Positions 14,659 to 24,521 of a stretch of DNA of 64,000 nt are shown piece by piece. The stretch spans positions 952,902 to 1,016,901 of the forward strand of contig JAKVOB010000001.1 of the NCBI GenBank assembly GCA_022483015.1, read 5' to 3'. Source of the stretch: Atopobiaceae bacterium. Lineage in GTDB: Bacteria; Actinomycetota; Coriobacteriia; Coriobacteriales; Atopobiaceae. The number at the start of each line of letters is the position of its first letter. The stretch's first letter is position 1. The notes under the pieces were generated by a model. The model saw only the letters and a list, made by a program, of their open reading frames with translations, was not told where the DNA came from and did no database searches. The position numbers and the translations under genes are program-made.

Positions 14659-16368
14659 TTGCGACTTCATGAGTTAACCATACAGAACTACCGCGGTCTG
14701 AAGAACTGCCGCATCTTGTTAGGGGACGATTCTCCGCTCTCATGTCTGATTGGTCCAGGTGACTCCGGAAAGAGCACTGTCCTGTCTGCCGTGGAGTGGG
14801 CCTTTTGGCCGCGTTATAACCTGGGTGTCGGCGATGTCGACTTCTACAAATGCGATACGTCACAGCCAATTGTGATTGCAGCGTCGGTGAGCGGGTTTCC
14901 AGACGAGCTGTTGAAGGAGAGTAAGTTTGCGCTCTACCAGAGAGGTCTTCCACTTGATGGCGGAGGATTCGGCGAAGACGATGATCCCAAGGACGGGCGG
15001 CGCGTGCTAACCGTCAGACTTACCATTGGGAGTGATCTTGAGCCTTCGTGGGAAGTTATCAAGAACAATCGCGAGCCGAAACGAATCGGTGCTTCAGATA
15101 GGGCCATGATTCCCGTCTGCGTGGTTGGCAGCGGCGCTGGTAAAGACACGACATGGGGAAGGCATTCGCTACTCCAGAGATATGCGACATCAAATAGCGC
15201 AATGAAATCGACCTCTATCGAGGCACTCCGTCGACTCAGTACGCTGGAACTCTCGGATCTCGATGCGGCGACAGCCGAGCTGCCTAAACAGGTTGAATCG
15301 TTTGGCGTGAATGTCAGTGGCGATTCCTTTGTGAACCGGTTTCTGATGACTGGCGCTCAGCTCCCCTCGCAGGCAGGACTATTTGACGGTGATGCTCCTC
15401 TTGCGCTGCTTGGTACGGGATCAAGAAGGCTGTTCTCCATAGCCATGGGATTCCGCCTGTCCCAAAACGGTTCTCTAGTTCTAGTTGATGAGATTGAGAG
15501 CGGCCTTGAGCCCCATAGGCTATGCAACCTAATCCAGCTTCTAAGAGCTATGGGGTCTGACGTCCATTCGCACGTGATTTTCACGACTCACTCTCCCGTA
15601 GCACTTAGAGAGATGCAAAGCGATGAACTGTACGCGTTCCATTGCTTAGGCGGGATAGCCCAATCGCATCCGCTCGCTTCAGATGACAACGAAATCTCAA
15701 ACGATGTTCAGGCTCAGCTGCGTAAATCAGCGGAGTCATTTCTCGCCAAACGTGTTGTGGTTTGCGAAGGAAGCACCGAAGTGGGGGTTCTTCGGGCGAT
15801 TGACTGTAGCATTCGCGAGAAAGATGATTATGGAATCACCGCGGCCGGGGTCGCTCCATCGGACGCGGGAGGTGGAAAAAACATGTTCAAGTATGCCCGG
15901 CACTTTAAAGATGCTGGCTATGACGTGTGCATTTTTATGGACTCTGACAAACCCTACGAAGATGACAAGAAGGCAATGAGGGACAACGGCATTTCCGTGT
16001 TTGACTGTGACGAGGGGCTCTTTCTGGAGCAGCAGGTTTTCACAGATGTGGATTTCGAAGGGGTAAGGGAGCTCCTCTACTATGTTGAAAAGAAGATCGG
16101 AAAGCAGCGTGTCGGCGATCAGCTGAGATGCCAGGGATTGCACCTGGACGAGATCTTTGCTCCTGGCCAGGATGGTCTGACCCTGGTGCTTCGCCAGCGT
16201 CTTGGAAAGATTGCGGGCGAGAAGGGATGGTTCAAGTCCGTTACGGGCGGCGAGATACTCGGAACCATTGCTCTAAAACATCTTCGGGTCAACGAAGGTC
16301 CTGATGGCAATACGACCCTTGCCAATCACTTCGCCGGGATTTCGAGGTGGGCAATTGGGCAGGATTGA
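14659..16368 (+). CDS. gajA: OLD-family ATP-dependent endonuclease (ABC-type ATPase + TOPRIM), Gabija GajA-like
   Basis: TTG start giving MRLHELTIQNYRGL. Walker A GPGDSGKST (14752-14778). Walker B LVLVDEIESGLEP. TOPRIM Glu in VVVCEGSTE (15766-15768) and DSD (15940-15948). Followed by a UvrD-like helicase. Confidence 0.85.
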   Translation: MRLHELTIQNYRGLKNCRILLGDDSPLSCLIGPGDSGKSTVLSAVEWAFWPRYNLGVGDVDFYKCDTSQPIVIAASVSGFPDELLKESKFALYQRGLPLDGGGFGEDDDPKDGRRVLTVRLTIGSDLEPSWEVIKNNREPKRIGASDRAMIPVCVVGSGAGKDTTWGRHSLLQRYATSNSAMKSTSIEALRRLSTLELSDLDAATAELPKQVESFGVNVSGDSFVNRFLMTGAQLPSQAGLFDGDAPLALLGTGSRRLFSIAMGFRLSQNGSLVLVDEIESGLEPHRLCNLIQLLRAMGSDVHSHVIFTTHSPVALREMQSDELYAFHCLGGIAQSHPLASDDNEISNDVQAQLRKSAESFLAKRVVVCEGSTEVGVLRAIDCSIREKDDYGITAAGVAPSDAGGGKNMFKYARHFKDAGYDVCIFMDSDKPYEDDKKAMRDNGISVFDCDEGLFLEQQVFTDVDFEGVRELLYYVEKKIGKQRVGDQLRCQGLHLDEIFAPGQDGLTLVLRQRLGKIAGEKGWFKSVTGGEILGTIALKHLRVNEGPDGNTTLANHFAGISRWAIGQD

Positions 16369-16387
16369 GCTGTTGTCTGATGCCGAC

Positions 16388-17779
16388 ATGTGCTTGCAGC
16401 GAGTTGCTGCTGTTGCGCCTGCGGGGTTTGGAAAGACTGAGCGCATAGCTGGGGCAGTGGCATCTCCCAATGCGAGGACCTTGATTCTGACTCACACGAA
16501 CGCGGGTGTTCGTGCTCTGAGGCAACGCATCTACTCGAAGGAGGTCCCGGCGTTCTCGTATCGTGTTGCGACGATTGCCGGGTGGTGCGAGTCTTGGGTG
16601 TCCACATATCGTGCGACGACCGGATATTCCTCGTTTGCAGAGTTAAAGGGAGCGTCTCCCAGCGCCTACTATCCAAGGGTTTACGCTGCCATGAAGAAGC
16701 TTCTCGGGTGCGAATGGGTGGCAGACTCGTTAAAATCCTCCTACTCGAGAGTGCTTGTTGACGAGTACCAGGATTGCACCATGACACAGAATGAGCTCAT
16801 TCTGTCGCTCTCCGAAACCATCCCCATTACTGTCTTCGGCGACCCAATGCAAGGTATCTTCTACTGGACGAAAGACGACCAGCTGGTGAACTGGGGATGC
16901 CTCAACATGCCCATACGGGATATGGGCGGGAAGCCGTGGCGTTGGATAAACTCTGGGCATGAGAGCTTAGGCAGATACGTTCAAGAGGTGAGAGAGATGC
17001 TCCTGCCTACTCTAGATGGGCGGGATGTTTCGTTGACGCTCAAGACAGATTGCTCCGATGTCCAGATTATTAGTAAAGATGAACTGCGTAAGTGGCAACC
17101 TGAGCGTAATGACGGGAGTGCTGTATTTCTTTCGACGATTAAGGGAGTACAGAACGGGTTCTCGAACCGTCACCATGGCTTCCAATCGAACGAGGCAGTG
17201 GATAATCCTGAGGCAAAGGAATTCTGTGAACGTGTAGACAGCGAGGTCGGCACCGATCTCGCTCTGGTGGTGCTCGGTTTTCTCGGCAGATGCTATACGC
17301 GAATGAACCAGCAGATGTCTTCGTATGTTCGCCACTTGAAAAACGGTGATTTCGACTTCAGGCGAATTAGCAAACATAGTGACGTCGGGAGGACCCTCAC
17401 CGTCCTCGAGAGCCACTCTACTATTGAAGCGGTATGGAACATCATCTCTGCAGTAAATGAGTGCAAGGATTTCAGGCTTTATCGCGGTGTCTTGGTCTGG
17501 GAGGTCACCAAGGCCCTCGAGCTTGCTATGGAAAATCAGACCACTGCTCTTGAGGGGCTGGAGCTTTGCAGGAGCAGAGGAGTGTCTTTCAGGGATTACT
17601 GTCCGTTTCCCCGCTTGTCATCCAGAACTGTGCTCTCCAAGGGGTTGGAATACGATACCTCCATCGTGGATGTGTCGAGCATGCCAGACCCAAGAGATCT
17701 CTACGTTGCGATATCTCGCTGCAAAAAGAAGCTGGTTCTCGTTTCGGATTGTCAAACGCTGCAGCTCCGTGGAATCTAA
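16388..17779 (+). CDS. gajB: UvrD/Rep-like superfamily-1 helicase, Gabija GajB-like
   Basis: APAGFGKT, VLVDEYQD (16760-16774), VFGDPMQGIF, SKGLEYDTSIV, LYVAISRCKKKLVLV. Start is ATG 16388, or CTG/TTG at 16370/16373 directly after the gajA stop. Confidence 0.85.
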   Translation: MCLQRVAAVAPAGFGKTERIAGAVASPNARTLILTHTNAGVRALRQRIYSKEVPAFSYRVATIAGWCESWVSTYRATTGYSSFAELKGASPSAYYPRVYAAMKKLLGCEWVADSLKSSYSRVLVDEYQDCTMTQNELILSLSETIPITVFGDPMQGIFYWTKDDQLVNWGCLNMPIRDMGGKPWRWINSGHESLGRYVQEVREMLLPTLDGRDVSLTLKTDCSDVQIISKDELRKWQPERNDGSAVFLSTIKGVQNGFSNRHHGFQSNEAVDNPEAKEFCERVDSEVGTDLALVVLGFLGRCYTRMNQQMSSYVRHLKNGDFDFRRISKHSDVGRTLTVLESHSTIEAVWNIISAVNECKDFRLYRGVLVWEVTKALELAMENQTTALEGLELCRSRGVSFRDYCPFPRLSSRTVLSKGLEYDTSIVDVSSMPDPRDLYVAISRCKKKLVLVSDCQTLQLRGI

Positions 17780-17823
17780 GTGCGTCGACTCTCATACTCC
17801 CGAGACGGATGGTCTCGCATTTT

Positions 17824-17858
17824 CCCTCACGCGCGTTAGGTGTTCCTGCGCGTGAGGG
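17824..17858 (+). terminator. Stem-loop closing the AT-rich cargo block
   Basis: CCCTCACGCGC-13 nt-GCGCGTGAGGG, 45 nt after the gajB stop. Confidence 0.5.
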
Positions 17859-17974
17859 GAGCGGCCGCGGGAGGGCTTGGCTGCGGCCGTGGCGGTGGAA
17901 AAGGGGGTGCCGCCCACGTTCTCCGTGGACGGCACCTTTGCCACCGTGGGCGGTCAGTCCTTTGTCCTAGGGTC

Positions 17975-18424
17975 TCATTCCTCCCACGAGTAGGCACCGA
18001 TGAGGTGACGTAGGCGGGCGCAGCGCTCTCCTACGATGGCGATGGATATGACGTCGACGCGTGCCTTCTTGCACTCTGGGTGCGCGAACAGGTAGCGCAT
18101 GGCGAGCCTGCGGTATGACTCCTGTCCCTCGACGTCGACGGCGAGCTCCGGCATGTAGGACTCCTCACCCAGGCGCACGTGCGTCCTGACGTCCACGAGG
18201 ACGACCTCCCCCTCGCTGTCGTCCGACGCCACGACGGGCACGCTGCCCTCCTCGCACGCGAAGCCGTCGTCGCCGACGACGTAGCCGCGCCTCTGGAGGT
18301 AGAGCCTGGTGAGCTTCTCTCCCTCGGACTCGACCTCGGTTGGCGTCATCTCGGCCACGGGCGTGGTCGCCTGCTCTTCCTGGTTGCCTGTTGCCTGCTG
18401 CTTGGTGCTCTCGTTGCTGCTCAT
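17975..18424 (-). CDS. YraN/UPF0102-family (PD-(D/E)xK-fold) protein with acidic N-terminal extension
   Basis: LTRLYLQRRGYVV...GEVVLVDVRTH...YRRLAMRYL...RVDVISIAI matches the family layout. Core positions look diverged (GSVPVV, LVDVRT). GC-rich again. Confidence 0.6.
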   Translation of the reverse strand: MSSNESTKQQATGNQEEQATTPVAEMTPTEVESEGEKLTRLYLQRRGYVVGDDGFACEEGSVPVVASDDSEGEVVLVDVRTHVRLGEESYMPELAVDVEGQESYRRLAMRYLFAHPECKKARVDVISIAIVGERCARLRHLIGAYSWEE

Positions 18425-18431
18425 GTTGGCT

Positions 18432-18635
18432 CCCTAGGACTTGGGGGGCCCTTTGCCCCCTCGATTAAGAGAGCAAGCAAGGTCCCTCCTCCCCGTCCGC
18501 GCGTCCTTGCGGGCGTGGCGCGGCGCGGACGGGGAGGAGGGACCGTCGGGGAGCGGGAAGAGGTGCTTGCTCCCCGTGCTAGCGTCTTAATCGAGGGGGC
18601 GAGACGTCGCGAGCGAAGCGAGCCCGCCCTAGGAC
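18432..18635. repeat. About 200-bp nested-palindrome element bounded by 9-bp direct repeats (CCCTAGGAC)
   Basis: Outer arms GCCCCCTCGATTAAGA (18455-18470) / TCTTAATCGAGGGGGC (18585-18600). Inner 22-bp arms 18481-18502 / 18523-18544. Direct repeats at 18432-18440 and 18627-18635. Confidence 0.45.
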
Positions 18636-18753
18636 CTGTCGTCTTGCTTGCGCTGGGCGGTTCATACGTATCTCCTGACGTAACACCTCGATATATGGTC
18701 TTTCCTTGGGTACGATATGAAGCGATAGTCCGACAACGGCGAAGGCGGCTGCC

Positions 18754-19101
18754 ATGGAGTGGGTCTACCAAGATGTCGTTGTCGAGACGGTCGACTGGTT
18801 TGCGCGAAGGGCCATTCCCGATTCAGGTAACTGGCATGGTGAGAGCTACCGAATCCAGCAGGTAGCAATGATTGGCGGGAGCGCTTGGAGGGTCGAGATC
18901 GACATTCCTACCTCCGCTGAGGATGCTTGGCTGAGTTTCATCATCGAGGCCTCTGATGAGACTGGCGAGACGTCCGTTTCCGACATTGAGTGTGTGCGTG
19001 GAGGACGTGCTGAGCATTTCTACGAGACATATAGCTGGAATGACAACTCGGGGGAGTGGGCAGTAATTGATCTCTTGGATGGTGACTCCTCTCAATCTTG
19101 A
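18754..19101 (+). CDS. Hypothetical acidic protein (115 aa)
   Basis: Coherent translation in a lower-GC block. Same strand as, and 109 nt upstream of, the 368-aa ORF. No recognisable motif. Confidence 0.5.
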   Translation: MEWVYQDVVVETVDWFARRAIPDSGNWHGESYRIQQVAMIGGSAWRVEIDIPTSAEDAWLSFIIEASDETGETSVSDIECVRGGRAEHFYETYSWNDNSGEWAVIDLLDGDSSQS

Positions 19102-19210
19102 TTGTATGGTCTATCTGAGGTCCTTGCCTATATGCTGATGGGCCTACTGTTTTGAACGGTGCTTTCGATATGGGCCGTGAGCTGCCTGGCGATTTAGCGA
19201 GAGGGATAGT

Positions 19211-20317
19211 ATGCCTGACGATATGGAAGAATCGCCTGTCTGTAGCGAGGTCGGCATGCCCGACTACTTGGGGGTCTTCACCACATCAATGAAGACCTAC
19301 AGGCGGTTCTCCGAACACCTGCCGGTGAATGGCCATGTTGTCGATCTGGCTAATGGCGCGAAGAAGGCATCGGACGTTGTTGGCGAGACCAACGAATCAG
19401 ACTACTTTGGTGTCATGATTCGTCTCATGCTCCAGAGGAAGTACTTCCAACGTGGCGGGGATCACAAGAAGCCCAATCCCCTGTTTATAAGAAACCTTGT
19501 CAAGACCGCGCAGGGCAGTTATCCAGATCAGTCTGACACGTGGCAGCACGTCCTAGAGAGACTCGATGATCTCAAAAAATGCGAGGTTCAAGTCTCTCTC
19601 CCGGATGGAACAGTTCAAGCTGGTTTCTTTGATAACGTCCAGGATGTTACATATGGAGCACTTCTTCATGCCGATCCAGACAAGCTCGAACGGGTTGCCC
19701 AGATTCCGGAGTCTATGCAGACCATATATGTCGGTGAATACGTTATGGCGCGGGAGAGAATACTGGTCGACTTTTCTGATGCCCTGCAGGCGTCGGGAGT
19801 GAAGACGCTTGATTCTCATAAGACCGAACGGAAGGCGTCGGTCTACATGGGACTTCAGGAGGGGTCTGTTGGGAGATCCATCTCTGGGTCGCCTTGTTGG
19901 TCAGGTCTTGTGGGTCGAGATATGGACGATGATGAAATTGCAGACACCGTTTTAAAGAGTGACAGCCTAGAAGACCTATATGTAATTCAAGTCTGCAGCC
20001 AGTTCGTTTCAGAGCTTCTTGAGGACCAACCTGACGTAACAAAGCTAAGCGCAATGGTTGCTCCATGGCTTAGAGAAGAGTGGGGGGACTTTTCGGAGGC
20101 AGCCCAAAAGGTTAAGAACGTTCGCAACATTGGGTTTTCACATACTGTCGATTATAGGGATGGTGGCATTGGAGCCGTCGTTAAGATGCTGCCTGATGTA
20201 GAAGCGGCGTTTTGTGTCGAGGGGCCTCAGCTAATCGAAGACGGTGAGGTCGGTTTAGTCAAAACCGGCCAGGGATGGAAAGTGATGCGCCTCTATCCCC
20301 CACAATATGGACAATGA
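19211..20317 (+). CDS. Hypothetical protein (368 aa), no recognisable domain
   Basis: Long non-repetitive ORF in a lower-GC block with no competing ORF of similar quality. GAGAGGGATAG lies before the ATG. Confidence 0.65.
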   Translation: MPDDMEESPVCSEVGMPDYLGVFTTSMKTYRRFSEHLPVNGHVVDLANGAKKASDVVGETNESDYFGVMIRLMLQRKYFQRGGDHKKPNPLFIRNLVKTAQGSYPDQSDTWQHVLERLDDLKKCEVQVSLPDGTVQAGFFDNVQDVTYGALLHADPDKLERVAQIPESMQTIYVGEYVMARERILVDFSDALQASGVKTLDSHKTERKASVYMGLQEGSVGRSISGSPCWSGLVGRDMDDDEIADTVLKSDSLEDLYVIQVCSQFVSELLEDQPDVTKLSAMVAPWLREEWGDFSEAAQKVKNVRNIGFSHTVDYRDGGIGAVVKMLPDVEAAFCVEGPQLIEDGEVGLVKTGQGWKVMRLYPPQYGQ

Positions 20318-20377
20318 TCATAGGCTGTTCTGGTTCAATTTGTACGTTAAAGAATCAGGCGAATGCCTCATGCGATG

Positions 20378-21643
20378 CTATTTCGCCTTGGCTGTTTTGT
20401 TACTCCGGCCGTCCGTGCTTGGGAACAGTAGAACCGTGCCTCCCTTGTCGGGTTCCGGCCTCCTGCTCATGACATCGTCGATGGTCTTCGCCGCGGCCCT
20501 CTTGGAGGCCGGGTCTGCGCTCGCGTAGATGTCGAGCGTCATCGAGGCGTTGGCATGCCCCAGGATCGAGCTCACGGTCTTCACGTCCACGCCCTCGGCG
20601 ATGGCGAAGGTGGCGAACGTGTGCCTGAGGTCGTGGAACGAGGGTACCCTGCCCTGCGTGCCCACGAGCCCCATCGAGCTCGCGAGCGCGTTCCACTGCT
20701 TCCAGACGGTGAAGACGCTCGCATATCCCCCGCGGACGTCGCCCAGCACGTAGAGCTGCGCCATGCGCTCGCGGGAGTCGTCGAGGTCGGCCTCGAGCCG
20801 CTCGGCCCTCATCTCGCGGTAGCGGTGTCGGAGCGGCCCCACGAGCGCCTCGGCCATGGGGACGTCGCGCCTGCCGCTCGCCGTCTTGGGCTCCTTCACG
20901 TAGGTCCTGCCGCCGTCGCGGGCGATGGCGCGCCTCACCCACACGGTCCTCGCGTCGAAGTCGACGTCGCCCCACCTGAGCGCGCAGATCTCGCCCTGCC
21001 TCATGCCGGTCATGAGGGCGATGGTGACGGCGAGGTTGAAGGGCGTGTCGGCCGCCGCCTCGAGGTAGGCGAGGAGCGTCCTCCTCTGGTCGTCCGGGAG
21101 CGCGTTCGGCATCGTGCGGGCGACCTTCGGCGCCCTCACGCGTGCGACGGGGTTGCGGTCGAGCAGGCCGTCCTCTATGGCCTCCTCGCACACGGTCTTG
21201 AGGAGGACGTGCGCCTTCCTCACGGTCTTGGGGGAGAGGCCGCGTTCGGGACCCATGAGGTCCGCCTCCCATGCCTGGACGTCCTCCGTCGTGAGGTCAC
21301 GCATCGCTATGCCGCAGAGCCCCTCGTCGGCATAGCCTACGTCGCATCGGTAGCCGCGAATCGTGGTCCTCTCCACGGACCTGGACGTCTCGAGCGTGTC
21401 GACGTAGTGGCTCATGTAGTCGATGACGGTGATGTCCGGCCTCATCGACGTCCTCGGCTTGCGCCCTCCCGCACGCCTCTCGAGCGTCGCTCGCACCTCG
21501 GCGAGCTCCCGTTTGGCGTCGCGCATGTTGGACGCCTCGAGCGTGCGGCTCGTCTGGTGCCACCGCCCGTCGCCGTCCTTGTACTTGAAGATCCCGCGGT
21601 AGGGAGGGACGTCTCCCCGGACGAAGCAGTTCGTATATAACAT
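20378..21643 (-). CDS. int: Tyrosine recombinase / integrase of the ICE
   Basis: C-terminal catalytic region ...GMRQGEICALRWGDVD...HDLRHTFATFAIAEGVDVKTVSSILGHANASMTLDIYA. Adjacent to the tRNA-derived att repeat. Confidence 0.93.
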   Translation of the reverse strand: MLYTNCFVRGDVPPYRGIFKYKDGDGRWHQTSRTLEASNMRDAKRELAEVRATLERRAGGRKPRTSMRPDITVIDYMSHYVDTLETSRSVERTTIRGYRCDVGYADEGLCGIAMRDLTTEDVQAWEADLMGPERGLSPKTVRKAHVLLKTVCEEAIEDGLLDRNPVARVRAPKVARTMPNALPDDQRRTLLAYLEAAADTPFNLAVTIALMTGMRQGEICALRWGDVDFDARTVWVRRAIARDGGRTYVKEPKTASGRRDVPMAEALVGPLRHRYREMRAERLEADLDDSRERMAQLYVLGDVRGGYASVFTVWKQWNALASSMGLVGTQGRVPSFHDLRHTFATFAIAEGVDVKTVSSILGHANASMTLDIYASADPASKRAAAKTIDDVMSRRPEPDKGGTVLLFPSTDGRSNKTAKAK

Positions 21644-21659
21644 TCATTCCACCTCTTAT

Positions 21660-21692
21660 GCACCAAGGGGCCTTGGTGCGCGCGCACCAAAT
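21660..21692. promoter_or_regulatory. Overlapping-palindrome motif (three GCACCAA half-sites) in the integrase upstream region, copy 1 of 3
   Basis: GCACCAAGGGGCCTTGGTGCGCGCGCACCAAAT, 17 nt upstream of the int start. The same motif occurs at 24135-24166 and 44201-44233. Confidence 0.5.
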
Positions 21693-21744
21693 CCCGATTA
21701 CCGTGCAGTCCTGTCTTGGCAAAGTTGTACCACGCTGTCCTGGT

Positions 21745-21930
21745 ACCAGCGGCGACGTTGGCCGTATTGGCGAGCATGGCGAGAACGAACATCAAATATT
21801 ATCGACTCATAACCCGGAGGTCGTTGGTTCAAATCCAGCCCCCGCGACCAAAAACATGCAGGTCATCGACGAGAGTCGGTGGCCTGTTTTTGTGTTGGTA
21901 CTACGTTGGTACTGCTTTGGTACTACAGGC
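21745..21930 (+). repeat. Extended att-region direct repeat (arm + tRNA core + hairpin + 3x TTGGTACT)
   Basis: Near-identical to 34551-34735. The first 106 nt are also near-identical to 44286-44391. Confidence 0.85.
21806..21850 (+). repeat. att core: 3' 45 nt of an initiator-like tRNA-Met(CAU), not a complete tRNA
   Basis: CTCATAACCCGGAGGTCGTTGGTTCAAATCCAGCCCCCGCGACCA contains the anticodon loop, the 3' anticodon stem CCC, the T-arm and the acceptor 3' strand + CCA. No matching 5' half (CGCGGGG...) lies upstream. Confidence 0.85.
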
Positions 21931-22218
21931 CATAGTGGTCGTACAACCCAGAATAAGTGCATAACCTGTGGCGCCGTGGTTCCCTTGGGACAGGGACGGA
22001 TGGTCCCCCTCCCGCCGGGCCCACCATCCACGGACCGAGACACACGAACACGACGGTCCTCTCGAAGTGGGCACCAAGACGACGATGGGCATAGCGAGGC
22101 TGACCCGATTCCATTGGTGGGAGCATCTCCATGTGTCGGTTCCGGTCTTGCTGGTACCATTGACAAATGATGGGCCATGGGCAGATGGAGCAGTGCCCAG
22201 AAGATGATGCGAGGACAT

Positions 22219-23661
22219 ATGACACAGTGCCCGGTGACAGACAACGATGTCAGTAAGCTCTCTGCGGCAAAGGAGAACCATTACTATGACCGCAAGAGCG
22301 CGCGTATCAAGCCGGACCATCTGGCGCAGCACATCGTCGCCCTCGCCAACGCAGCAGGCGGGAAGCTTGCTATCGGGATCGAGGACGACGGCGAGGTAAC
22401 GGGATTCAAGGCTGACGGCGCACAGACCATCGAGGGCTTCGAGCAATGTGCAATCATGGACTGTCTGCCTGCTCCGGACGTGACCTCTATCCGCATTCCC
22501 GTCATAAATTCAAGGGGTCAGGAGGATCTCGTCCTCGTACTCGACGTCGCGCCATCGAGCGATCGGGTCATCGGCCGCAAGAAGGACGGCAAGGTGTTCT
22601 TGAGGCAGGGCGACAAGAGCCCGGAGCTCAGCCATGAGCAGATTCGTGCCCTCGAGTACGACAAGAGCCAGCGTGTCTTCGAGGACGAGCTCGTCCCCGA
22701 CTCATCGATCGGAGACGTCGACCACGAGGTGCTCGACCGCTACAAGGTGATCCTCGGCACAGATGCTACGGACGAGCAGGTGCTCGAGAGCCGTAGGTTC
22801 ATGCGTGACGGCAGGCTCACCGTCGCGGGTGCCCTGCTGTTCGCCGAGGACCCCTCGTCCTTCATGCCCCAGGCGCGTGTCAGGGTGCTCCGCTTCGACG
22901 GGACGAAGATGGAGACCGGAGAGCGACTCAACATATCGAAGGACAGGACCTTCGACGGCCCCATTCCCAAGGTCGTGGACGGTGCCTATACCCTCATCTC
23001 GAGCATGCTCAGGGAGTTCCAGTTCCTTGGCCCGGACGGCAAGTTCCAGGTCGTTCCGGAGTATCCCGAGTTCGCCTGGTTCGAGGGTATCGTCAACGCG
23101 GTGACTCACAGGGACTATGCCTTCCGTGGCGACTACATCCGTGTCTCCATGTACGATGACAGGCTGGAGATACTGAGCCCCGGCAAGCTCCCCAACACGG
23201 TGACGCTCGACAACATGCGCACCACCCGCTACTCCCGTAACCCCAGGATCGCCCGGACCCTCGTCGAGTTCGGCTGGGTGCGCGAGCTCAACGAGGGGGT
23301 CCAGCGTATCTACTCTGAGATGCAGCGAATGCTGCTCAACGATCCGGTCTACACCGAACCGGAGGGGTCGAGGGTGCAGCTCACCTTGGAGAACAACATC
23401 GTCGCTCGCACGGTCAGGCGTAAGGAGGCCCTCGACGACAGGCTGTCCGAGGAAGTCATGTCGAGCCTCGGGGAGTATGAGCTTGCCGCTGTCCAGCTTG
23501 CCTTCGCGAACGGACATGTCACCACGAGGGAGTTGGCCGGCCGCATCGGACGGAGCACCCGTTCGGCCAGCAAGGCTCTCAAGGACCTGGCCTCACGTGG
23601 AATTCTGCACTGGCATGGGAGCTCGAGGAACGATCCCGCCCAACGCTACTCCCTTGACTGA
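22219..23661 (+). CDS. Schlafen/AlbA_2-domain + HATPase_c_4-like putative DNA-binding ATP-binding protein with C-terminal wHTH
   Basis: HIVALANAAGGKLAIGIEDDGEVTGF (AlbA_2-like). NAVTHRDYAFRGDYIRVSMYDDRLEILSPGKLPN...SRNPRIARTL (RecG C-terminal-like ATPase fold). Start chosen at ATG 22219. Confidence 0.75.
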   Translation: MTQCPVTDNDVSKLSAAKENHYYDRKSARIKPDHLAQHIVALANAAGGKLAIGIEDDGEVTGFKADGAQTIEGFEQCAIMDCLPAPDVTSIRIPVINSRGQEDLVLVLDVAPSSDRVIGRKKDGKVFLRQGDKSPELSHEQIRALEYDKSQRVFEDELVPDSSIGDVDHEVLDRYKVILGTDATDEQVLESRRFMRDGRLTVAGALLFAEDPSSFMPQARVRVLRFDGTKMETGERLNISKDRTFDGPIPKVVDGAYTLISSMLREFQFLGPDGKFQVVPEYPEFAWFEGIVNAVTHRDYAFRGDYIRVSMYDDRLEILSPGKLPNTVTLDNMRTTRYSRNPRIARTLVEFGWVRELNEGVQRIYSEMQRMLLNDPVYTEPEGSRVQLTLENNIVARTVRRKEALDDRLSEEVMSSLGEYELAAVQLAFANGHVTTRELAGRIGRSTRSASKALKDLASRGILHWHGSSRNDPAQRYSLD

Positions 23662-23672
23662 GCCACCTGTTC

Positions 23673-23723
23673 ATTTCGGAGTATTTCGGAGTATTTCGGA
23701 GTAGTTTCGGAGTATTTCGGAGT
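23673..23723 (+). repeat. Five tandem 10/11-bp direct repeats (ATTTCGGAGT)
   Basis: ATTTCGGAGT x3, AGTTTCGGAGT, ATTTCGGAGT, starting 12 nt after the stop at 23661. Confidence 0.9.
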
Positions 23724-23788
23724 GTCCGGGGAGAGAGCCTATGACGGTCATTTGGCAATCGGGTCCTGGGGAGAACCCATAGACAGGG

Positions 23789-23822
23789 CCTCTCGATTAT
23801 GCCCATGGGCATAATCGAGAGG
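23789..23822. repeat. Perfect 34-bp palindrome
   Basis: CCTCTCGATTATGCCCATGGGCATAATCGAGAGG, self-complementary over its full length. Confidence 0.9.
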
Positions 23823-24043
23823 AGAGCCATGGAAATGGCCCTCGAATTGGCTACAGGGACGATGGCGGCCGCTTCCGGTCAGGGGAGTGCTCGCCCATGG
23901 CCCATCCGCGTGTGAAGAATTCCCGTCCAATACCACCGTACGAAGAATCGGCGAAGAGAGCCCTGACAAAGGACGACAGGGGAGGCACGAGGTAAGGCGA
24001 CCGATACCACCGTTCGATACGGTCGGGTAACCCTCATATCGAG

Positions 24044-24087
24044 CCATAACCCGGAGGCCGTTTGTTCAAATCCAGCCCCCGCGACCA
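24044..24087 (+). repeat. att core copy 2 (diverged tRNA-Met 3' fragment)
   Basis: CCATAACCCGGAGGCCGTTTGTTCAAATCCAGCCCCCGCGACCA, followed by the hairpin GGCCATCGG-cttgtc-CGATGGCC. Confidence 0.8.
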
Positions 24088-24134
24088 AAGGCACGCAGGC
24101 CATCGGCTTGTCCGATGGCCTGGATTAGTGTCTT

Positions 24135-24166
24135 GCACCAAGGCCCTTGGTGCGCGCGCACCAAAT
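24135..24166. promoter_or_regulatory. Overlapping-palindrome motif, copy 2 of 3 (no adjacent integrase)
   Basis: GCACCAAGGCCCTTGGTGCGCGCGCACCAAAT. Confidence 0.45.
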
Positions 24167-24521
24167 AGCGTGCGAATGGGCTTTCTATGGAGGCCAATCC
24201 GCTGCAAGTTATCCCGACGCCGTCAACGGTGCCAGACAATCCCAAACCGCCTCAAATCGGTCATCGGAGGACGTCCTCGACGTCCCCGCAGGTCTTCGCC
24301 AAGAGCGCGAGAATGGTCGTTCTGTGACTCCTGGCCCTGCAAGATGCTAGGAGACCCTAGACCCTTCTCTTTGTGATGCCGCATGGGCAGGTCGTCCTGG
24401 TCTGCCCTTTGCACCAAGTCGACGGCAGGAGATCGGAGCAAGGATGACAGCGAGTCACATGGCACCAAACGGTGAGGTCGGAGTTTCTCCAAGGCGCGAG
24501 CCAGAGCTTATAGGCGTGAGA

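Follow-up and report, generated by a model that had tools for sequence, protein, structure and literature searches.

An uncatalogued gene family associated with defence loci, and its independently inherited neighbour, at the integrase end of an Atopobiaceae integrative and conjugative element

Restriction-linked accessory genes are found within type I hsd loci, among them the gene for the PrrC anticodon nuclease of the EcoprrI locus and the rlo genes of Campylobacter type I loci. To our knowledge, few cases of accessory proteins that work with restriction enzymes are understood. Here, we describe two neighbouring open reading frames (ORFs), ORF-A and ORF-B, located in a 64,000-nucleotide stretch of an Atopobiaceae bacterium genome (hereafter the window, to which all coordinates refer unless a locus is named), where no other gene separates them from the integrase at the attR end of an integrative and conjugative element (ICE). 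A first-pass annotation of this DNA had taken them for a two-gene cassette and for a candidate novel defence, toxin-immunity or exclusion pair. Our analysis revealed that both ORFs are real genes, that they are independently inherited and unlikely to constitute one functional pair, and that the ORF-B family is uncatalogued, unnamed and associated with defence loci, restriction operons above all. We give roughly even odds (a probability of about 0.5) to the interpretation of ORF-B as a stand-alone defence-island accessory protein that combines an NTF2-like sensor C-domain with a helical effector or binding N-domain. Of the defence pair initially proposed, a connection to defence is thus plausible for ORF-B, and its pairing with ORF-A is not supported.

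The association of homologues with defence genes, for which the first-pass annotation had recommended looking, was found for ORF-B. A recognised defence gene was located within 5 kb in about 11 of 15 independent contexts of the family (raw count), and in five contexts the ORF-B homologue adjoined or overlapped type I, type ISP or OLD-like genes (loci are numbered with L and family members with P throughout). At the P0016 locus, the gene order is hsdR-hsdM-hsdS-homologue, with a 4-bp overlap between hsdS and the homologue, followed by an ATPase_2/DUF234 protein. A type ISP enzyme of 1693 amino acids (aa) precedes, again with a 4-bp overlap, an ORF-B homologue, a 219-aa HExxH protein, Abi_C and a YraN-like gene, while elsewhere MutH-Dcm-432 aa-SNF2-NOV_C, or NOV_C alone, is followed by an ORF-B homologue, a 222-aa HExxH protein, Abi_C and a YraN-like gene. 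Another homologue is divergent from hsdM-hsdS-hsdR across 273 bp, and in approximately 10 Collinsella genomes PIN_12, AbiD and a 618-aa OLD-like AAA_15/AAA_21 ATPase are followed after 26 bp by an ORF-B homologue and then by AbiLi and AbiLii. Additional homologues are divergent from an 825-aa PDC-S01-TIR protein or, in a form fused to a helix-turn-helix (HTH) domain (P0017, HTH_3 E 1.2e-7; P0027 is likewise fused), from a 1228-aa STAND-type NTPase about 214 bp away. In an Eggerthella integrative element (L032), a CapH-like XRE-type HTH gene overlaps the homologue, which is followed by a 382-aa protein; in Erysipelothrix, a SIR2_2 gene and a DUF87 ATPase lie 2.5 kb from the homologue; and in the window itself, the Gabija system ends 1.4 kb upstream of ORF-B. 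Because the family keeps such company in most of its contexts, a defence-related role for ORF-B is a reasonable hypothesis.

Several observations from these loci deserve mention in their own right. The Collinsella arrangement (L024 8076-10987; also L021-L029 and L033) could be a two-gene system of the OLD-like ATPase plus a partner, with the ORF-B family occupying the place that UvrD (GajB) holds in Gabija. The 382-aa protein of L032 (11034-12182) overlaps the end of the homologue, has no Pfam or PADLOC match and carries KLRNAFVH (Rx4H) near its C-terminus, a sequence feature that makes it a possible HEPN effector. In L011 (3720-4388) and L018 (9117-9776), a 219-222-aa protein with the HExxH motif HEMIHLHE begins 39 bp after the closest ORF-B relatives and is itself followed by an ORF of 54-83 aa. 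Two apparent fusions, P0126 (OLD TOPRIM plus the N-domain) and P0145 (the N-domain plus a ThsB-like TIR), were rejected as real architectures, being short metagenomic gene calls; P0136 and P0047 share the same N-terminal segment and differ in their junk-like tails. P0145 and P0126, which may be assembly or frameshift chimeras, suggest additional TIR and OLD neighbours in low-GC Firmicutes and are evidence of adjacency at most.

In common with PrrC and the rlo genes, homologues of ORF-B lie inside restriction operons or are coupled to them, as seen in the overlaps with hsdS and the type ISP gene and in the divergent arrangement with hsdM, and RloA/RloB-type (AbiL) genes share the Collinsella island with an ORF-B homologue. 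However, the ORF-B family lacks the ABC-ATPase and anticodon-nuclease domains of PrrC and RloC, as neither Pfam nor PADLOC registered a P-loop or ABC match for any member, and RloA/RloB display no sequence or domain similarity to ORF-B. The single-gene abortive infection (Abi) proteins AbiD/Abi_2, AbiH and Abi_C resemble ORF-B in their size, mostly helical character, solo occurrence, patchy distribution, carriage on mobile elements and presence in the same islands, but none of 63 diverse ORF-B family members matched a hidden Markov model (HMM) of an Abi family in PADLOC or Pfam, and the motif conserved in ORF-B is YGxxLHxD rather than the Rx4-6H of HEPN proteins. A likeness to type II toxin-antitoxin or HipBA-like modules lies in the HTH gene that overlaps the homologue in L032 and in the fused HTH of P0017 and P0027, as in some HipA-family toxins, although ORF-B has no kinase or known toxin domain and the copy in the window has no HTH partner. 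Among the catalogued anti-phage systems of PADLOC-DB 2.0, no component significantly matched ORF-A or ORF-B.

The lack of a recognised motif in either protein, reported in the first-pass annotation, was confirmed by Pfam, NCBIfam, PHROGs and PADLOC, none of which provided an accepted match. Searching PDB sequences with profiles of both families returned zero matches at E values up to 10, and a literature word search found nothing specific. A PADLOC match of ORF-B to PDC-M03A (E 0.015) was dismissed as chance, being absent in the 62 other family members. ORF-B homologues formed 18 clusters in a word-indexed search, and an exhaustive HMM profile search extended these to 257 clusters (at 50% identity) at E < 1e-3, including 90 at E < 1e-30; the existence of this conserved family establishes ORF-B as a real gene. 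Members are proteins of about 340 aa, most of them 330-370 aa long, and the closest relatives share 53% identity with ORF-B. Their hosts comprise Collinsella, Eggerthella and other Coriobacteriia, Erysipelothrix, and Enterococcus faecium with its conjugative megaplasmid pKO1, and members are located on ICEs, on this conjugative plasmid and within defence islands of chromosomes. A homologue was present in just 5 of the 401 genomes of the class, one of these copies being frameshifted. No member was detected in 50,697 phage records, and a scan of IMG/VR viral contigs for a single motif (LMLQRKY) confirmed no relative. The 63 diverse members yielded no recurrent Pfam family and no PADLOC model matched by more than one of them, which is why we regard the family as not catalogued.

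The independent inheritance of the two genes is evident from related elements. ORF-A was found without ORF-B in three related YraN-ORF-A-integrase modules, namely L015/L016, L017 and an additional element from the genome of the window (L041; G000:C1:1962000-1981900, outside the window). In L015, L016 and L017, ORF-A lies between the YraN-like gene and the integrase with no gene intervening. L041 resembles the element in the window in its relaxase (75% identity), a 169-aa protein (96%), its YraN-like gene (90%), its ORF-A counterpart ORF-A' (81-84%) and its integrase (57%), and there ORF-A' is directly convergent with the integrase. A blastn comparison aligned window positions 17822-19038 with L015 9069-10285 at 91% DNA identity, covering the YraN-like gene, the palindrome and most of ORF-A; the homology is lost within the terminal ~25 codons of ORF-A and reappears at 20451 in the 3' end of the integrase (69%). 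Because the unmatched stretch measures 1413 bp in the window versus 187 bp in L015, ORF-B must reside on about 1.2 kb of DNA that is extra relative to the sister elements. Conversely, when all six members of the ORF-A family served as tblastn queries, the other loci with an ORF-B homologue yielded nothing resembling ORF-A, and a 98-aa ORF before the P0003 homologue was rejected as an ORF-A analogue, being low-complexity, Arg/Phe-rich and spurious in appearance, with no similarity to ORF-A. Elsewhere, the two genes adjoin only in L058 (97.3% DNA identity) and L059 (99.9%), and since both samples carry copies of the same element, the adjacency represents a single event. ORF-B is therefore a mobile accessory gene, acquired apart from ORF-A on ~1.2 kb of lower-GC DNA, and its adjacency to ORF-A is an accident of insertion.

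The composition of the locus had been described correctly in the first-pass annotation, as two same-strand ORFs in a lower-GC block: the GC fraction of the ORF-A and ORF-B block is 0.49-0.57, compared with 0.66-0.72 in the flanking YraN-like gene and integrase. The GC fraction at third codon positions is 0.54 in ORF-B versus 0.8-0.92 in backbone and host genes. ORF-B is preceded by a good Shine-Dalgarno sequence (GAGAGGGA, 5 nt before the ATG). The hairpin and T-run in the 109-bp spacer between the two genes are weak, and terminator-like sites in general were not more numerous than expected from shuffled sequence, so this hairpin is suggestive at most. An Rfam scan of 17500-24500 produced no match.

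Structural modelling suggests a two-domain organisation for ORF-B. The AlphaFold2 model, built from 18 sequences, reached a predicted local distance difference test (pLDDT) score of 84.5 and divides into an N-domain (approximately residues 1-235) and a C-domain (approximately 240-365), joined by a linker bearing S-P-x-W. Residues ~19-194 of the N-domain are modelled as entirely helical, with R-L-M-L-x-R-K-Y in one helix and Y-G-x-x-L-H-x-D at a helix end, while the C-domain comprises helices at 240-302 and then six strands at 308-362 with pLDDT above 85. Across 63-80 diverse members, R76, K77, Y148, L152, H153 and F265 are invariant, and Y30, G133, G149, D155, E182, W230, A322 and W356 are at least 90% conserved; R76-K77 lie in a different helix from the Y148/H153 motif. 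A HEPN reading of the N-domain was rejected, as no Rx4-6H is present and the motif Y148-G-x-x-L-H153-x-D155 has a Tyr in place of the HEPN Arg. The profile and fold searches suggested in the first-pass annotation thus brought no family match for either protein and nothing significant for the fold of ORF-A, but for ORF-B, nearly all top Foldseek matches in the PDB were NTF2-like or SnoaL-like proteins, weakly aligned to its C-terminal ~120-150 residues (among them the RsgI9 NTF2 domain 7sjy, the intermembrane-space domain of ARC6, 5d9r, and the SEC-C/YchJ proteins 2jq5 and 9vxg). The C-domain is accordingly read as probably NTF2-like, although these matches are weak (E 0.01-0.3), come without sequence signal and concern a third of the protein. 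A Foldseek search of the BFVD with the same model found nothing viral.

The interpretation that we favour, a stand-alone defence-island accessory protein, could operate as follows. The NTF2-like C-domain would serve as a ligand- or protein-binding sensor, and the helical N-domain would hold an effector or binding site around R76-K77, Y148 and H153, to which D155 and E182, both nearly invariant, would also belong. As the analogy of restriction-linked accessory genes suggests, ORF-B might then provide a second line alongside nucleases of the restriction or OLD type. We infer the defence activity, the roles of the domains and the nature of the conserved site. Several points weigh against this interpretation. 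The evidence for a defence role is genomic association, and ORF-B has no homology to any characterised protein; moreover, about 4 of the 15 contexts (L030, L055, pKO1 and largely L008) contain no recognised defence gene, and ORF-B in the window is not adjacent to a restriction gene. The best NTF2-like match has an E value of only 0.011, with template modelling scores of ~0.2 (query) and 0.4-0.5 (target), and an effector role for the N-domain is a guess because Foldseek found no structural match for it in the PDB or BFVD. In addition, ORF-B may be an incomplete remnant of a larger module, since no homologue of the HExxH protein that accompanies its closest relatives was found when looked for in the genome that contains the window. 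A bolder version, which we consider speculative and doubtful, is that ORF-B founds a family of restriction-coupled guard proteins, in which a hitherto undescribed helical catalytic domain (with an R-K/Y/H-x-D/E site) would be held in check by the NTF2-like sensor. Such a protein would dock on or monitor type I, type ISP and OLD-family nucleases, fire when a phage or plasmid inhibits them and be able to act alone on ICEs; PrrC-EcoprrI would be analogous in mechanism, though the protein is unrelated in sequence and fold.

The main competing explanation, unlikely in our view but the one we take most seriously, is that ORF-B is a sensor or regulator that modulates neighbouring defence or restriction genes in the manner of WYL/BrxR, CapW or CapH-CapP. 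The N-terminal XRE HTH fusions (P0017 and P0027) facing the STAND NTPase, the overlapping CapH-like gene in L032 and the divergent arrangement with hsdM are all compatible with regulation, an NTF2-like domain is a common binder of small ligands, and the HExxH protein after the closest relatives recalls partners of the CapP/ImmA type. However, this protein matches only a SprT-like model, weakly (E 0.008), and not M78/ImmA, no DNA-binding domain was detected in most members, including ORF-B of the window, and the window offers no adjacent gene to regulate, the neighbours of ORF-B being ORF-A and the convergent integrase. The location of ORF-B on an ICE, next to the integrase, together with the presence of the family on a conjugative megaplasmid, would also suit a protein that serves the ICE itself and not host defence, be it in entry exclusion, in maintenance or against restriction during transfer. 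We consider this highly improbable, given that most homologues are chromosomal and sit within restriction and Abi clusters, not conjugation modules, and that three sister elements do without ORF-B. Translational coupling to hsdS and the type ISP enzyme is the opposite of what anti-restriction would lead one to expect, and the model shows no evident signal peptide or membrane segment, as would be expected of exclusion proteins.

A related question is whether ORF-A and ORF-B could nevertheless form a toxin-antitoxin, toxin-immunity or exclusion pair in this particular lineage, with the acidic ORF-A neutralising ORF-B. A small acidic gene that precedes a larger one on the same strand is the layout of many type II toxin-antitoxin and immunity pairs, some ORF-B homologues have a small upstream partner (the CapH-like HTH of L032) or a fused HTH reminiscent of HipBA-like toxins, and the adjacency is kept in two other samples. 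Such a pairing is nonetheless highly improbable: those samples hold the same element and count as one event, three other elements that lack ORF-B maintain ORF-A in this position under purifying selection, two chromosomal contexts contain ORF-A as well, more than 12 other ORF-B contexts have no ORF-A-like gene, and many ORF-B homologues are solo. Furthermore, the 109-bp gap with its hairpin does not resemble a tight operon, and ORF-A lacks both an HTH and any domain known to Pfam, NCBIfam or PADLOC. For ORF-A itself, a role as a DNA mimic or protein-inhibitor accessory, such as an anti-restriction protein or enzyme inhibitor, kept in the end module of the ICE, would be compatible with the accessory role favoured for ORF-B. 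We put this forward as a tentative and rather doubtful idea. It draws on the strong net negative charge of the protein, on a compact helix-on-sheet fold as in small protein inhibitors (cystatin, monellin and adhiron are among the weak structural matches), and on its place under purifying selection in the ICE backbone. On the other side, ORF-A has no significant sequence or structure match to ArdA, Ocr, Ugi, SAUGI or another mimic; none of the DNA mimics (ArdA, Ocr, Ugi/SAUGI-like) was among the 50 best PDB Foldseek matches listed for it, so that its acidity alone fits. Its homologue at 33-35% identity, moreover, occurs in a NIF3-like/LCM-methyltransferase setting without mobile-element genes nearby.

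Independent of ORF-B, ORF-A is a gene of the conserved YraN-like/palindrome/ORF-A/integrase end module of an Atopobiaceae ICE family. Its isoelectric point (pI) is 4.05, with 23 Asp and Glu against 6 Lys and Arg residues (a net charge of about -17 over 115 aa), and seven Trp residues were counted in its translation. Only two clusters of relatives (96% and 80% identity) were found among 5.8 billion proteins, the 80% relative deriving from Atopobiaceae metagenome-assembled genomes (L015, L016 and L017). The ratio of nonsynonymous to synonymous substitution rates (dN/dS) was ~0.13 over codons 1-88 against three homologous copies, indicating purifying selection and, thereby, a real gene. A set of 20 residues remains invariant even in two distant homologues (29-35% identity), among them W3, the IPTS motif, AWL and four Trp. 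One such homologue (33-35%) is chromosomal and lies between NIF3-like and LCM-methyltransferase genes, and the other adjoins a putative tRNA gene, judged from the translation of the neighbouring ORF only and not by a tRNA finder; a metagenome scan recovered one further copy only, in the chromosomal NIF3/LCM context. The AlphaFold2 model of ORF-A (6-sequence alignment; pLDDT 84.6, predicted template modelling score 0.77) consists of a single N-terminal helix packed on a six-stranded antiparallel sheet. Foldseek found no significant match to it in the PDB (best E 0.089), the weak matches including cystatin, monellin, adhiron and designed NTF2-like sheets. A function as an excisionase or recombination directionality factor was rejected as unlikely because the protein is too acidic and has no HTH, its fold being a helix on a six-stranded sheet.

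The surroundings of the two genes (Table 1) bear out the first-pass view of an integrase-proximal cargo slot in an ICE, as indicated by the relaxase, the VirB4/TraC-like ATPase, the integrase and repeats of tRNA-Met. The ICE is inserted at tRNA-Met and measures ~30.9 kb between the tRNA and the repeat that ends at 21850. Upstream of the two genes, the window contains a MobA/VirD2-type relaxase, an ArdC-like protein, a TQ/thioester adhesin, a glucosaminidase plus NlpC/P60 wall hydrolase and a type IIG-like methyltransferase fusion, and a VirB4/TraC-like ATPase lies just left of the window. The intact tRNA-Met(CAT) is located at G000:C1:943805-943881, about 9 kb left of the window, and its last 25 nt occur in five same-strand copies, at G000:C1:943857 and at window positions 21826 (-21850), 24063, 34632 and 44367. 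Of these copies, the leftmost alone belongs to a full tRNA, and ARAGORN detected no full tRNA within the window. The locus is thus a tandem array of islands, in which the ICE with ORF-A and ORF-B is the first unit. Just beyond attR, at 22177-23661, lies a gene for a 494-aa protein with Schlafen AlbA_2, HATPase_c_4 and winged HTH domains, which matches the N-terminal part of a PADLOC model associated with prokaryotic Argonautes (E 3.5e-45); in L008, comparable AlbA_2 genes are again found in the vicinity of ORF-B homologues.

Table 1. Features of the integrase end of the ICE and its vicinity (window coordinates)
Feature	Position	Strand	Description
GajA (Gabija)	14659-16368	+	PADLOC E 2.5e-134; forms a complete pair with GajB
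GajB (Gabija)	16304-17779	+	PADLOC E 1.4e-95; forms a complete pair with GajA
YraN/UPF0102-like gene	17975-18424	-	Pfam UPF0102 E 3e-10; conserved ICE end module
Palindromic intergenic element	18432-18635		Between the YraN-like gene and ORF-A
ORF-A	18754-19101	+	115 aa, very acidic, Trp-rich; end-module gene
Segment without detectable DNA homology to "empty" relatives	19038-20451		Comprises ORF-B together with the diverged ORF-A 3' tail and the 3' tail of the integrase gene
Weak, terminator-like hairpin and T-run	19126-19153	+	Within the 109-bp ORF-A/ORF-B spacer
ORF-B	19211-20317	+	368 aa; single-gene cargo, unnamed family
Tyrosine integrase	20378-21643	-	Convergent with ORF-B; Pfam Phage_integrase E 6e-27
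attR	21795-21850	+	3' half of tRNA-Met(CAT), anticodon arm to CCA end; ICE right border

Comparison of the sister elements also clarifies how this end of the ICE is organised. The YraN-like/palindrome/ORF-A module moves or is conserved as a unit, palindrome included. The integrases are just 69% identical and the cargo is wholly different between the elements that share the 91% identical YraN/palindrome/ORF-A block. In L041, the cargo on one side is a 1112-aa T5orf172-ResIII protein with Eco57I-like methylase pieces, and on the other side are insertion sequence (rve) copies, AbiH and an AAA_21 ATPase. In the window, the second cargo slot, located 3' of the YraN-like gene, is taken by Gabija. 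The closest relatives of ORF-B likewise adjoin a YraN-like gene, but on its opposite side, which in the window is occupied by the type IIG enzyme and Gabija. In this Atopobiaceae ICE family, the YraN-like gene thus has a cargo hotspot on either flank.

These results bear on how such elements should be read. The negative outcome matters, in that ORF-A and ORF-B should not be annotated as a toxin-antitoxin pair, and ORF-A is better studied as a backbone gene of the ICE. In this gut Atopobiaceae ICE family, the YraN-integrase end is a hotspot that takes up cargo to the left and right of the YraN-like gene. If ORF-B is active, an unnamed family of about 250 clusters (at 50% identity) would be added to the defence-island genes of Coriobacteriia, Erysipelotrichia and an Enterococcus plasmid, and its repeated coupling to hsdS and a type ISP enzyme would provide a new, testable example of restriction-enzyme accessory proteins.

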